Part shown: piece after piece, positions 9,648 to 64,000 of the stretch | Layout of the letters: each line of letters begins with the position of its first letter | Position numbering within the stretch: the stretch's first letter is position 1 | From: Escherichia coli | GTDB taxonomy: Bacteria > Pseudomonadota > Gammaproteobacteria > Enterobacterales > Enterobacteriaceae | Assembly (NCBI RefSeq): GCF_050320075.1 | Contig: NZ_CP190021.1 | Strand: one strand, 5' to 3' | DNA length: 64,000 bases | Notes under the pieces: model-generated | The model's database searches: none | Told to the model about the DNA's origin: nothing | The model's input: the letters and a program-made list of their open reading frames with translations, nothing else | Program-made: the position numbers and the translations under genes

Positions 9648-9776
9648 GGCAGGGCTGCGCCCTGCCTCTGCCGTCTGCATAAGACTATGATGCACAAAAA
9701 TAACAGGCTATAATGGCCTGAAAAACGGGACAGGATGTGCAATTGTATAACCGCGCACGCGCGATTATACAATTGC
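9648..9776. promoter_or_regulatory. oriT: origin of transfer (oriT) with predicted nick site on the - strand
   Basis: Inverted repeat ggcagggc-tgc-gccctgcc (9648-9666); 12-bp inverted-repeat arms gcaattgtataa/ttatacaattgc (9739-9776); minus-strand core CATCCTG/TCCCG resembling IncP/IncI nick regions, placing the nick near 9730/9731. Confidence 0.7.
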
Positions 9777-46446: not shown

Positions 46447-46465
46447 CACCGACCGGATTGGCACG
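46447..46465 (-). repeat. shufflon sfx repeat 2
   Basis: reverse complement gtgccaatccggtcggtgg. Confidence 0.9.
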
Positions 46466-46472
46466 TAGGCCA

Positions 46473-46491
46473 GTGCCAATCCGGTACTTGG
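46473..46491 (+). repeat. shufflon sfx repeat 3
   Basis: gtgccaatccggtacttgg. Confidence 0.9.
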
Positions 46492-46820: not shown

Positions 46821-47307
46821 AGAAAGGTAGGATCTGGTGAGCTTCAAATTGCTACAGCACAGGCCACAGGTTGGCGCTTTCCTGGAGCAACAGCTACTTG
46901 TCCAACTGGAAAACGTGTTACAGGTGGCGGCGGAATATGCACCTCACGAACTGGTTACATATGGCTTACCAGGTCATTCCCATCAGCCAATAACTCATGG
47001 TCGGCTGCGTGCGATACAACCGAAGATCAGAATGGTTCAATAACTGTATATGCCATTTGCCAATAAGCTATTTCAAGCAAGTAATCTTCATAAAGTAGGA
47101 CGAATACTGTGTGTAGTTTTTGGCTTGCCAAGTCATCTCGCCGTTAGAGTCAGGCATGTCAATAGGAACGACTTCTGTTTCTGCCATTTCACGCCCGTCA
47201 ATACGATAGGTGTTAATACACAGTTTAAACCTCCCTAAGACCTGTGTGTTTTTGGGATATAACGTAAATGTTTTTATATTCGTCCATATCGACGCTGATG
47301 ATGATTT

Positions 47308-47326
47308 CCAGGTACCGGATTGGCAC
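47308..47326 (-). repeat. shufflon sfx repeat 5
   Basis: reverse complement gtgccaatccggtacctgg. Confidence 0.9.
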
Positions 47327-47334
47327 GTAGGCCA

Positions 47335-47353
47335 GTGCCAATCCGGTACGTGG
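47335..47353 (+). repeat. shufflon sfx repeat 6
   Basis: gtgccaatccggtacgtgg. Confidence 0.9.
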
Positions 47354-47685
47354 AAGACTTCTGGTTCGCTCAATGGTTCTTACACAAACTTAGGTTCACA
47401 TAGAGGTTCATTCTCAGGGCGGAATTCAGGGGGCAGTACATTGTTTATTTATGCATCTGGAGGTAATGGAGGATCTGCCGGAGGTGCATGTGCAAATACA
47501 TCCCGACTGCAGGGATATGTTGGTGGGACGCTAATTAGCGTGAATGCCAGCAATAACCCTGCATATGGAAAAACAGCCTTTATCAGCTTTGCTGTACCTG
47601 CAGGTACTTCCTATCAGATAACATCCTATCCAACAGAAAATACATCATGTGGTGCCGGGGTATTTTCAGTATTTGGATATCAAAC

Positions 47686-59845: not shown

Positions 59846-60112
59846 CAAAGACTCCTTTCGGAACGGGAAAAGAAGCAGCTGTACCGTCGTAACTGCACGT
59901 ACCGGTTGCGAAAAAACGGCACAAGCGAGTAGTGACAGAAAGAATCCCGGGAACGGCAGAAAGGGTGGTACAGGCTGCGAAGACGGGTCACGGGGTGTGT
60001 CGGGAATTAACGCACGTGAGGCGTAATGAGAGCGAAGCTCTTTTTGCCAGGGTCATCTACGTTGATTTTCATGTATGTTTTCCTGTCGGAAATCGTGGTG
60101 CTCTTATAACTG

Positions 60113-60739
60113 TTATTCCCTGTTTCCAGAATCGTTTTTCAGGGTCAGAATGACAATACCACAGCGGGGATTTATGTGAGGCACTTTCCACTGAGATAAG
60201 ATTCTGCTGACGATGAGGATGCGGAACATGACGCTATTCATGGCGGATTCCCTTCGTTCCGCTGTTACATCCAGCCCTTTTCGGCGCAGAGAGCAAATCA
60301 GCTTTTGTGTCCTGGCTTCAGTCAGAAGATGGGATTTCATGTAGATACGTTTCTTCTGGCGTAATAAGGGGGGCAGCTTTTCGAGTAATTGCTTGAAGTG
60401 TTTTTTTATCGCCTTCTTTGAGGAAGTATCTGCGAGTGCGCTCAGGAAAACACATACTGTGTGATTGTCAGACATGTCTTTGGTTTTAAAACTATTTTTC
60501 CTAAATATTATTCTAAGCAGAATGAAAAACGGACGGACTAACAGCGGGAGAGCTATCATCCCCAATATCTCTACTAGCGTCCATATGTTCATCTGGTACA
60601 AGCCATCCTTGCAGAGCAAAATCGCTATAATGCACCAGACGCTATATATAGCTAATGGAATACGATATTGGAGTTTCATGTATTGCTCTTCCTCAGTGTA
60701 ATGTGATAGTCGTCTGCTCCTGTGTTGCACCCCAGACAT
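60113..60739 (-). CDS. traD: TraD-like membrane protein, paralog of PilK
   Basis: Transmembrane N-terminus; C-terminal similarity to the 58456-59046 product; start may be the internal Met; symbol positional. Confidence 0.5.
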   Translation of the reverse strand: MSGVQHRSRRLSHYTEEEQYMKLQYRIPLAIYSVWCIIAILLCKDGLYQMNIWTLVEILGMIALPLLVRPFFILLRIIFRKNSFKTKDMSDNHTVCVFLSALADTSSKKAIKKHFKQLLEKLPPLLRQKKRIYMKSHLLTEARTQKLICSLRRKGLDVTAERRESAMNSVMFRILIVSRILSQWKVPHINPRCGIVILTLKNDSGNRE

Positions 60740-61376
60740 CTTCTGGCAGGCTGGGCAGCCCGATAAATAAGGTGTGAAAGAGGGTTTCTCTGCGTTCGAT
60801 CCCGAATTGATGTTCGTATCCTCTCACCACCTGAAATCCTTCGTCGGAGAATATTAACTCTGCCGCTTCCAGAAGCTGCATAGTTTTGCGGTGTAGTGGA
60901 GTGATCAGCTGCAACGTAACTGGTGCCCTCATATCGCCTGTCGGTAGAAAACACTCTTCGGTGCGACTTAGTTGTAGCAGATGACGTTTCCCGGAACAGG
61001 CCCGTTCAATGGATTCATTGAACACCCTCTCAGGCCATGGGCAGACATATGTGCGCCAGCCTGCTTTCTGTAATTTACCCAGTGCAGCCCGAAAACGAAA
61101 CAACGGACATTCCCCGACAGTGGCAGAGCTGAGAAAGAGCGTATTCAGCGTTCCGATGATGGGAATATTGCGATCTTTTTCGGTCAATGCTTTTAACGCC
61201 ATGATTTCGCCAGGGAGACTACGGAACTCAGGATGTCTGCTGGCACCAGAAAGCCATTCAAGCAGGTAATGCCGTAATCCGGTTTCACTGGTTATATTGT
61301 GGTTTTCCTGTGCCGTTTTCAGGGCATTCAGTGCACACCAGAGCAACTGGCGCACGGGATGTTCTGTCGTGGTCAT
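60693..61376 (-). CDS. traC: TraC-like putative transfer regulator
   Basis: 227-aa ORF between the NusG-like gene and traD; symbol positional. Confidence 0.55.
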   Translation of the reverse strand: MTTTEHPVRQLLWCALNALKTAQENHNITSETGLRHYLLEWLSGASRHPEFRSLPGEIMALKALTEKDRNIPIIGTLNTLFLSSATVGECPLFRFRAALGKLQKAGWRTYVCPWPERVFNESIERACSGKRHLLQLSRTEECFLPTGDMRAPVTLQLITPLHRKTMQLLEAAELIFSDEGFQVVRGYEHQFGIERRETLFHTLFIGLPSLPEDVWGATQEQTTITLH

Positions 61377-61629
61377 GCGAATGTCCTACTGTGAGATGAA
61401 AAGAAGACCGGTATCCGTTCTCTCCGCCACACGTGATGGCACGGGCCGGCCTTTGATAAAACGAATCAATACTCTGGGGTGAAGCCTTTTATTTCTTTCG
61501 CCATTAAGAAATACACGGTTCCATCAAAAGACAGGGGGAGTCCATGGTGGGGATGGCTTCGTGCAGGCTTCACTCCGGAATATTCTCTTGAATTGAAAAA
61601 AGCCCGGCCCGAAGGCCGGGAAATACTGG

Positions 61630-62184
61630 CTATGGGATGTTTACAAGGCGCTCCATAAAGCCGTGATGTTCGGCATTTGATACCAGTTCCAGGAGCAGGG
61701 ATATCCTCGACTCAGGCTGGAGAGTATTTTCCATTCTGAGGAGATACTGATATTGTGCTTTTGTCAGCCATATGCTGGAAGCCGCATTCAGCTCTTCCCT
61801 GGCTCCCGGATTTAGCACAGGGTCCGGGTAAATCTTCATTAATCCATCAACAATATCTTTATTGACGGGTTTTATTTCACCGCCAAACTTCACGAAATCA
61901 ATGAAGGCGCTATGTCGACGTAATGCTGATACTGGGTGAATGTCAAAATTAGCCAGAATAAAAAAGTACCCTGGAAAAATAGCGAATATTCTTTCACGGT
62001 AACAGCACCTGGAGTCTGCCCGTCTTATCTTTCTTGTTATTAATGGAGTCCATGGTACGACGTTTTGCTCATTCAGCCATGAGAATAAAGATTCTCTGTT
62101 TTTGCCGGCTGTATTATATTGCGCAAGATACCAGTTCCGGTTATTCAGGTGTTCTATATTCACGAAGTTCAACGCTCCGCGCAA
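61630..62184 (-). CDS. traB: NusG/RfaH-family specialised transcription antiterminator (TraB/ActX-like)
   Basis: NusG N-terminal-like NWYLAQYN..PGYFFILANFD..FVKFGGE; the track start is a TTG, and a GTG at 62163 with a GGAG RBS is a more likely start. Confidence 0.75.
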   Translation of the reverse strand: MRGALNFVNIEHLNNRNWYLAQYNTAGKNRESLFSWLNEQNVVPWTPLITRKIRRADSRCCYRERIFAIFPGYFFILANFDIHPVSALRRHSAFIDFVKFGGEIKPVNKDIVDGLMKIYPDPVLNPGAREELNAASSIWLTKAQYQYLLRMENTLQPESRISLLLELVSNAEHHGFMERLVNIP

Positions 62185-62292
62185 AACCGATCCATGATGG
62201 ACGATTTTGCGATGTCAGGCGAATATGCTAAATCATATGTCTGAAGCAGTGTCCAGCCCATATCTGGATAAACTGCAGTTCTGACAGGCATA
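62169..62292 (-). promoter_or_regulatory. bipartite conserved leader element, copy B, at the traB start
   Basis: Box 1 tcaacgctccgcgcaaaaccgatccatgatgg, box 2 ctgcagttctgacaggcatat. Confidence 0.5.
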
Positions 62293-62604
62293 TAACCAGC
62301 AGACTCTAGTACGTTCTGTATCGGTGATTTGGCGAACTCACAGATAAAGAACGGCTAAGCACTAATATCAGCAATACAGTGGCACAGTATTGTGATACGC
62401 GAAATAAAACATCAGCACGTCAGTTCAGAGTAAGGTCGCCATATATCGGGCATGAGCCAGATACAAATAACTGGGACACCGTCTGAAGTGATTTGCTTTA
62501 TTAAAGTAACTTGTGCTTGGTGTTTATGTTTATCAATTTGGGATCGCCTGTAAAGTGCAAAATGCAATTTCCATGAAAGTGTCCCCTTTAATGGGGACAC
62601 CTGT

Positions 62605-62892
62605 TCACATTTTTTCGTTTTCTTTAGCTGTATTGCTAATCATGAAAACGAAAGTTCGCATCAGCACAGCAGAGCGAAGTGCATCATATCCTTCCAGATT
62701 TAAATTCTTCAGGCTTCGCTTCAGGTAGGTTCGTACCGTTTCGGGAGAAAGCCGACAGTTCTGAGCAATGGCGTCGTAAGGAACACCCATTGCGTAAAAA
62801 ACGCAGACTTTAAGCTGGTTTGTTGATAGCTCGGGAAACATGCCTTCCAACAGAGTGATGGCCGGGAGTTTCTGTATCAGTTGAGGTGACAT
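62605..62892 (-). CDS. traA: LuxR/FixJ-type HTH transcriptional regulator (TraA-like)
   Basis: C-terminal HTH pattern LSTNQLKVCVFYAMGVPYDAIAQNCRLSPETVRTYLKRSLKNL; ATG 62892 with GGAG RBS preferred over the TTG at 62913. Confidence 0.6.
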   Translation of the reverse strand: MSPQLIQKLPAITLLEGMFPELSTNQLKVCVFYAMGVPYDAIAQNCRLSPETVRTYLKRSLKNLNLEGYDALRSAVLMRTFVFMISNTAKENEKM

Positions 62893-63230
62893 AGCAAAGG
62901 TCTCCGATGACAACTAAAAACGCTATCACCGAGTTCCTACGCTCATTGGTGATAGCCCAGACGGGGGTAGGAATACCGGCGTCATCGGAAACCGGCCAGG
63001 CTAATGCCTGCCCCGCCTGAGCTACCATAGATGACGACAAGAAATACAAGTTCCTGTCTTTATGGTATGGCAAAAAACGACGCCAAATGAAGAAATTAAC
63101 TTCTGCGCCGACGATGACTACGCGGGTTCCTACGCCCGATCACAGTTTTGCCTGTGACCAGTAAAGGGTACTTAGTATAACGCACCGAGTCAACTAACAG
63201 CTTAAAAAACATACAAAAAAGCGTCAAAAC

Positions 63231-63361
63231 TTAACGCTCCGCGCCGAAGCGATCCAGGCATGATGCTTCTGCTTTGTGGCGTTCGAACATGCTGGTCCAT
63301 ATGCACGAAACGGTGTCTGACCCTCGTCCAGACAATCCGCAGTTCTGACGAACATATGAAC
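63231..63361 (-). promoter_or_regulatory. bipartite conserved leader element, copy C, upstream of traA
   Basis: Box 1 ttaacgctccgcgccgaagcgatcca, box 2 ccgcagttctgacgaacatat. Confidence 0.5.
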
Positions 63362-63884
63362 AAATATGCTCTTGTAGAGGCTGTTGTTACACAATTGGCG
63401 GGTTGTGTAACAAATGGTTTTATCATCTAAGAATCATTCTATTTACGATCGAATGATCTACAAAATGATTTTTTAAAGGTTATTTAGATCGTTTAATTGC
63501 ATTAAAACAGAATATTATTCTGTTAGGTAGATCGGTTGTAAGATAAATGATCGTGAGTAGGATAAAAGTCGATCTTTTAATCCAAAAGAAAGATCTAAAG
63601 CAGAAAAATCTGCTTTTAAAAATAGATTTTATTTTTTTGACGCAGGTCAAGATTAACTTATTAGAGGTATCAGTGAGGAGGCACTGGAAGAGAAGAGATC
63701 GTTGTAATGCTTTTCAAATTAACGTAAAGCGGGTATATTTCGGCTGTTATTAGCTGTGCAGAGGGTGGCACTCTGTGGAGCAAAGCGGCGAAAGCCGGAC
63801 GGCAGAATGCGCCATAAGGCATTCAGGAGAGATGGCATGTACGGGCAGTAAGTCAGAAGACTGAAGATGTTCCGGAAGCCATAA

Positions 63885-63950
63885 AAGGAAAACCCCCACT
63901 ATCTTTCTTACGAACTTGGCGGAACGACGAAAGATAGTGGGGGCCTCACA
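63885..63950 (-). ncRNA. candidate antisense Inc RNA of an IncI/IncB-type replicon, complementary to the repZ-leader stem-loop I; rep genes would lie beyond the window end
   Basis: + strand stem cccccactatcttt / aaagatagtggggg (63893-63943) with a 23-nt loop containing TTGGCG, the recalled target-loop motif of ColIb-P9-type copy control. Confidence 0.4.
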
Positions 63951-64000
63951 GAATACGGGTAAAGTATAATGAAACCGTACCAGAGATTCAACCCTGTGCA

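Follow-up and report, generated by a model that had tools for sequence, protein, structure and literature searches.

The right-hand end of the window, by which we mean the whole 64,000-nucleotide stretch of DNA analysed here, appears to carry the replication-control region of an IncI1 (I-alpha) plasmid of the ColIb-P9/R64 kind, a reading to which we assign a probability of about 0.97. According to this reading, the plus strand would encode the leader of the repZ mRNA and the minus strand the antisense Inc RNA. Competition of this kind, in which an antisense RNA opposes an activating pseudoknot, has been standard textbook material from the 1990s onwards, and the hairpin at the window edge is the well-studied antisense target and pseudoknot switch of IncI1 plasmids. 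Since nothing in the region departs from the ColIb-P9 picture, the finding is correct and already known.

Stem-loop I and the putative Inc RNA gene

A perfect inverted repeat lies within the final 120 bases of the window. Its arms at 63893-63907 (CCCCCACTATCTTTC) and 63929-63943 (GAAAGATAGTGGGGG) are 15 nt each, 100% complementary and separated by 21 nt. Three more pairs (63886-63888 with 63944-63946) lie under this 15-bp stem, below a 4-nt bulge, and the heptamer TTGGCGG sits in the loop at 63916-63922 (+). An earlier note on this DNA had placed the hairpin on the plus strand at the right site and with a TTGGCG-containing loop, yet had given its stem as 14 bp, whereas the inverted-repeat arms make it 15. 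Folded as plus-strand RNA, the element reaches -27.6 kcal/mol compared with a mean of -13.75 kcal/mol for 200 dinucleotide shuffles (z = -4.93), not one of which folded as well (0/200). The heptamer by itself occurs in eight copies in the window when both strands are counted, that is, at chance frequency; the combination of heptamer, stem and flanks is far beyond chance. We therefore annotate 63886-63946 (+) as the putative stem-loop I of the repZ mRNA leader and target of the Inc RNA, based on the inverted repeat, the fold, the Rfam match and the covariation described below. Its loop motif, 5'-UUGGCGG-3' in the RNA, would act as the kissing site of the Inc RNA, while GGCG(G) within it would provide the 5' half of the activating pseudoknot, a role that has been described for ColIb-P9 (PMC4705826).

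When 60000-64000 was scanned against all Rfam families, the family RF01087 (PK-repZ, "Pseudoknot of the regulatory region of the repZ gene") matched at 63885-64000 (+) with 144.9 bits (gathering score 44, E 3.7e-33). The match covers model positions 1-117 of 150, its 3' part being lost only to the window end; the full-length element (150 positions) scores 194.5 bits in pFORC44_1, and diverged relatives of the I-complex score ~183-185 bits. Besides, comparison across the complex speaks for the fold itself. Over eight distinct I-complex sequences, 97.8% of the cells in the proposed pairs hold standard pairs, and in five pairs of the 15-bp stem both partners have changed in a compensatory way; shifting the partners by 1-3 columns leaves 0-1 such cases. 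The same hairpin fold was found in every relative examined. The earlier note had suggested aligning the loop to Inc RNA targets; this alignment gave a match, with UUGGCGG invariant in 9/9 aligned I-complex leaders. Likewise, neither the loop GGCGG nor the distal CCGCC varies across the I-complex relatives.

On the minus strand, the putative Inc RNA gene (63880-63957, ~70-75 nt, ends approximate) would consist of the complement of stem-loop I with the loop CCGCCAA, followed by UUUUCCUUUU. The minus-strand fold is predicted at -33.9 kcal/mol (z = -5.79), with CCGCCAA in the loop and a U-run after the hairpin. A candidate Inc RNA promoter at 63963-63991 (-) joins a -35 hexamer TTGAAT (63991-63986) through a 17-nt spacer to a -10 hexamer TATACT (63968-63963), in agreement with the consensus at 9/12 positions; it overlaps the start region of repY, and both hexamers are invariant in 9/9 I-complex sequences. 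A transcript running from this candidate promoter to the U-run would be ~70-75 nt long, the 5' end being deduced from the position of the promoter. According to published work, Inc is a ~70-nt RNA that ends in 4U, and FopA, the FinO-domain protein of the plasmid, has it as its principal ligand (PMC7491321). The published map places fopA to the right of repZ, so that the gene is expected outside the window.

For the repZ mRNA, a plausible promoter can be read from the sequence at 63711-63739 (+), where a -35 hexamer TTTTCA, a 17-nt spacer and a -10 hexamer TATATT again agree with the consensus at 9/12 positions. The -10 TATATT is kept in the diverged pVP444 and in the IncK2/Z plasmid pMS1718-3 despite differing surroundings, the -35 TTTTCA only in pMS1718-3. 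About 60 nt upstream of this candidate promoter lies a palindrome, TTGAC-GCAG-GTCAA (63637-63650, +), which by its sequence may be an operator; both the TTGAC and the GTCAA arm are conserved in pVP444, and the second arm reads TTCAA in IncK2/Z. Within the repZ mRNA leader, upstream of stem-loop I, a block at 63801-63838 (+; GGCAGAATGCGCCATAAGGCATTCAGGAGAGATGGCA) is nearly invariant between IncI1 and IncK2/Z, with diverged flanks on either side and a small AATGC/GCATT hairpin inside.

Continuation past the window end and the proposed copy control

What lies to the right of the window was read from plasmids identical to it, in particular pFORC44_1 (L001), which is 100% identical to 62000-64000 (window coordinate = L001 coordinate + 57999). 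The 5' part of repY, a putative leader peptide beginning MKPYQRFNPV..., starts at the ATG at 63969 and occupies 63969-64000 (+), so that its first 10 codons fall inside the window, and the open reading frame runs for 58 nt further. In the window-identical plasmid, repY comprises 29 codons (MKPYQRFNPVQCINTRHNRSAISDSLWQV; L001 5970-6059). Its end at +58 lies 10 nt past a GTG at +46 (L001 6047), which in window-identical plasmids opens a 343-aa RepA/RepZ annotated as the replication initiator. In pESBL-EA11, repY is found at the equivalent position (PMC4288162; alignment offset verified). The RepZ of the window-identical plasmids is 95% identical to that of ColIb-P9, and its match to the Pfam family IncFII_repA is marginal (23.0 bits vs a threshold of 22.9 bits). 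The CCGCC partner of the loop GGCGG lies outside the window at +27 to +31 (L001 6028-6032), and CGCC is present in all identical continuations (L001, L002, L009, L010 and L011). A predicted hairpin (CCGCCAUAAGC/GCUUGUGGCAGG; -31 kcal/mol, z = -5.19) would hide both the CGCC and the GUG. This is the arrangement described for ColIb-P9, where the GUG start and a weak Shine-Dalgarno sequence are masked by a hairpin, and a CGCC directly upstream pairs with the GGCG loop (PMC4705826). Going by the window-identical plasmids, the CGCC partner, the masking hairpin and repZ should thus lie 27-1080 nt beyond the window end. Extending the sequence rightwards, as the earlier note had proposed, accordingly led to repY, repZ and CCGCC. 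Its expectation that the rep genes would lie on the plus strand just right of the window held for repZ; repY, on the other hand, begins inside.

The mechanism is established for ColIb-P9; for the present plasmid, we infer it from sequence identity. Translation of the 29-codon repY and termination at its stop codon would unfold the hairpin that conceals the GUG start codon of repZ and its weak Shine-Dalgarno sequence. Once released, the CGCC could pair with the GGCG in the loop of stem-loop I, and the resulting pseudoknot would hold the weak GUG site open, allowing the replication initiator RepZ to be made. The Inc RNA, whose level would follow plasmid copy number, is expected to kiss the UUGGCG loop in competition with the pseudoknot; pairing would subsequently extend and occlude the ribosome-binding site of repY, thereby blocking repY translation. 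The hairpin of the Inc RNA would double as its own terminator. The predicted outcome is a negative feedback on copy number together with incompatibility towards other IncI1 plasmids. Of these parts, the window itself holds the promoter-like sites, stem-loop I, the Inc gene and the beginning of repY.

The Hft locus and other elements between traA and the rep region

A by-product of the analysis is more useful than the copy-control hairpin itself. The Rfam scan returned a C4 antisense RNA (RF01695) at 62945-63032 (-), with 77.5 bits (gathering score 45), and a below-threshold match to a C4 a1/b1 target-like element at 63119-63171 (-). Over 116 nt, the region of this C4-like RNA shares 82% identity with the satellite phage P4, in the part that encodes the cI/"ash" immunity RNA. 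A phage origin of the DNA, such as from a P1-like phage-plasmid, was considered on account of the C4 match and dismissed, as megablast of 62000-64000 against a phage collection gave no match, compared with 1689 plasmids.

When pESBL-EA11 was aligned to the window (gap-free over 62521-64000, offset 27521), the published 270-bp "Hft" region of that plasmid (pESBL 35394-35663) fell on window 62915-63184, which contains exactly the two C4 elements. Transposon insertions in Hft, a superspreader locus of IncI1 resistance plasmids, increase transfer ~20-fold by a mechanism that was left unexplained (PMC4288162). The second hairpin of the C4-like RNA (GGUUUCCGAUGACG) has 14-nt complementarity to UGUCAUCGGAGACC at 62912-62899 (-), a target that includes GGAG, the Shine-Dalgarno sequence preceding the traA AUG (62892). 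The predicted duplex between the RNA and traA reaches -38.0 kcal/mol vs -26.1 ± 3.9 kcal/mol for shuffled targets, 2/500 of which were as good. Published point mutations can be placed on this map as well. From the published mutagenic oligonucleotides, the X2 substitution of R64-drd11 corresponds to window 63021 G>T, and X2 alone brings transfer to the level of the transposon mutants (PMC5801416). X2 is nucleotide 12 of the C4-like RNA, where it breaks a C:G pair (C12:G77) in the 17-bp closing stem and weakens the predicted fold from -48.6 to -41.8 kcal/mol. X1, in turn, maps to window 62931 and introduces a stop codon into the overlapping open reading frame Hp1; it had no effect (PMC5801416). 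The Pfam Phage_ASH match of Hp1 (residues 9-52) overlies the RNA gene, which suggests that the signal of this "protein family" reflects the RNA. The C4-like RNA is present in R621a, which has traA, and absent from two relatives without an annotated traA.

By sequence, then, the Hft locus coincides with an RNA resembling P4 CI and P1 C4 that is complementary to the ribosome-binding site of traA. According to published data, deletion of Hft abolishes traA expression, and insertions raise it ~50-fold. By analogy with P1 immI and P4 immunity, the Hft phenotypes would fit a promoter combined with a cis-encoded antisense repressor. None of the papers searched links Hft to a C4/CI-like RNA, although such a link may be published elsewhere. 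With the C4-like RNA at Hft, the 10- to 20-fold increase in ESBL plasmid transfer caused by single mutations would have an explanation open to direct testing.

A second perfect hairpin lies at 63384-63413 (+), in unannotated DNA ~500 nt upstream of stem-loop I. It has 11-bp arms (TTGTTACACAA/TTGTGTAACAA) around an 8-nt loop (UUGGCGGG), with UUGGCGG at the 5' edge of the loop, and is followed by the T-rich ATGGTTTTAT. Such hairpins, perfect over 11 bp or more and with a real loop, are few: at least five among the matches listed, and presumably ~7 in all once stem-loop I and the present hairpin are counted. R621a has the second hairpin with one arm change, which is uninformative, and it is absent in pVP444 and IncK2/Z; nearly all of the 1447 plasmids matching this region are at least 95% identical, so that there is too little diversity for a test of conservation. 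If transcribed on the plus strand, the hairpin could kiss and titrate the Inc RNA; if transcribed on the minus strand, its CCCGCCAA loop would mimic the Inc RNA. We consider it very unlikely that this hairpin is indeed a second partner of the Inc RNA, one that couples copy control to the Hft/traA region. If it were, the coupling might relate to the published and unexplained ~2-fold rise in copy number of Hft::Tn mutants, whose repZ mRNA is unchanged.

Between the transfer-regulator region and the rep promoter, within an AT-rich stretch (63420-63660), seven GATC sites are clustered in 146 nt (63447-63592, 27% GC), the densest such cluster in the window. The GATC sites at 63487, 63549 and 63571, together with a palindrome ACAGAATA-T-TATTCTGT (~63507-63523), are invariant in otherwise diverged I-complex plasmids. 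This suggests a control site bound by Dam/SeqA or another protein; a literature search for a GATC cluster upstream of the rep promoter found nothing relevant.

Replicon identity and comparison with known systems

Over 63839-64000, the window is 100% identical to ColIb-P9 (NC_002122) and R64 (NC_005014), with 0 differences, and pESBL-EA11 is identical to it within stem-loop I. Together with the PK-repZ match, this bears out the earlier note, which had recognised the target loop of the ColIb-P9 repZ leader. R621a (IncI-gamma) shows eight differences over the same interval, all of them in the upper stem and loop of stem-loop I, and the leaders of IncK2/Z-type and other I-complex plasmids differ from the window by more than R621a does. 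Because the hairpin equals that of ColIb-P9 and R64 and differs from those of IncI-gamma, IncK and IncZ-type relatives, the replicon is, by the sequence of its Inc determinant, IncI1 (I-alpha). The placement in the IncI/IncB/K/Z complex with which the analysis started was therefore right and could be narrowed.

It is scarcely credible that the replicon belongs to another member of the I-complex or to a related antisense-controlled group (IncI-gamma, IncB/O, IncK, IncZ, IncL/M or IncFII with CopA/CopT). The UUGGCGG loop, the lower stem and the flanks are common to the complex, whose diverged members also score highly on PK-repZ, and MOB-suite labels the window-identical plasmids 'IncI-gamma/K1', as opposed to 'IncI1/B/O' for ColIb-P9 and R64. 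However, that disagreement tracks the 5%-divergent RepZ allele rather than the Inc RNA, and the parts of the hairpin that distinguish the groups, in which the window follows ColIb-P9 and R64 base for base, are those reported to decide incompatibility (PMC10724649). Weak matches to PK-repBA (RF01089; 35.1 bits in the window, 35-41 bits overall) and, on the minus strand, to CopA (RF00042; 38.2 bits) might also point elsewhere, yet both stay below their gathering scores of 45 and 60, respectively, and membership in either family was rejected on these grounds. As for the hairpin being a chance inverted repeat or the intrinsic terminator of an upstream plus-strand gene, its perfect, G+C-rich stem and the chance frequency of TTGGCGG would be in keeping with such an origin. 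On the plus strand, however, the hairpin is followed by CCTCACAGAATACGG instead of a T-run, the U-run being on the minus strand, and the Rfam match, the shuffles and the covariation in relatives rule this origin out, leaving it a negligible probability.

We likewise regard it as highly improbable that the IncI1 control region is a mere remnant, in which the hairpin and Inc gene are intact and the rep genes missing or broken, for example through cointegration, insertion of an IS or a break in the assembly at the window end. What leaves room for this reading is that the sequence ends 46 nt ahead of repZ, so that the state of that gene lies outside the window. Against this, the last base of many complete circular IncI1 records corresponds exactly to window 64000; these records begin GTGTATAAATACACGG... 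and have an intact repA/repZ annotated at 46-1077. Megablast of 62000-64000 retrieved 1689 plasmid records, of which 1300 cover at least 80% of the query and 1075 match at >=99% identity; the great majority of the matching plasmids are conjugative, of the MOBP/MPF_I type, and come from Escherichia and Salmonella. Since the window ends where circular IncI1 records do, the break would be a linearisation artefact, and the window edge most likely represents the point at which a circular plasmid was linearised rather than a biological boundary. The start of the records is the GTG of the longest open reading frame (358 aa; L001 6002), located inside repY, 45 nt upstream of the repZ GUG, and rotation to this GTG leaves repY and the PK-repZ element each cut in two where the record ends meet. 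The value of the present finding is one of annotation: the replicon is typed as IncI1, repY and the Inc RNA gene extend across the end shared by window and records, and repZ would truly start at the GUG 46 nt past that junction, not at the longest-ORF GTG used for rotation.

The 25 kb preceding the region are IncI1 transfer backbone (pilN-pilV, the shufflon, traF and traABC). In the pilV region, inverted copies of ACCGGATTGGCAC / GTGCCAATCCGGT occur at 46452-46485 and 47306-47355, consistent with the recombination sites of the IncI1 shufflon. Elsewhere in the window, 9739-9776 holds an 18-bp near-perfect inverted repeat (GCAATTGTATAACCGCGC / GCGCGATTATACAATTGC) with 2 nt between its arms.

Among known systems, the IncFII plasmids R1 and R100, with their CopA-CopT-tap-repA arrangement, resemble the IncI1 region in that an antisense RNA kisses a leader hairpin and the initiator, a RepA of the IncFII_repA family, is translationally coupled to a leader peptide; the CopA model, however, stays below its gathering score here, and R1 is not known to have an activating pseudoknot. 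As judged by alignment, the PK-repBA family resembles the window in having a UUGGC-type loop on its hairpin and a complementary tract located distally, yet its stem sequence is unrelated and its score sub-threshold. Closer are R621a and the IncK, IncZ and IncB/O plasmids (RNAI/SLI/repB-repA), which have in common with the window the invariant UUGGCGG loop, the lower stem, the distal CCGCC and the start of the leader peptide, and differ from it in the upper stem and internal-loop bases, with compensatory changes. Closest of all are ColIb-P9 and R64, whose inc-repY-repZ control by Inc RNA, stem-loop I and a GGCG:CGCC pseudoknot was reportedly worked out by Asano and Mizobuchi. Their control sequence is identical, in window-identical plasmids through the CGCC partner and the repZ GUG, and they share the layout of Inc promoter, repY, masking hairpin and GUG start (PMC4705826). 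Nothing sets them apart in the control region; the one difference is that the RepZ of the 100%-matching plasmids is a 95%-identical allele.
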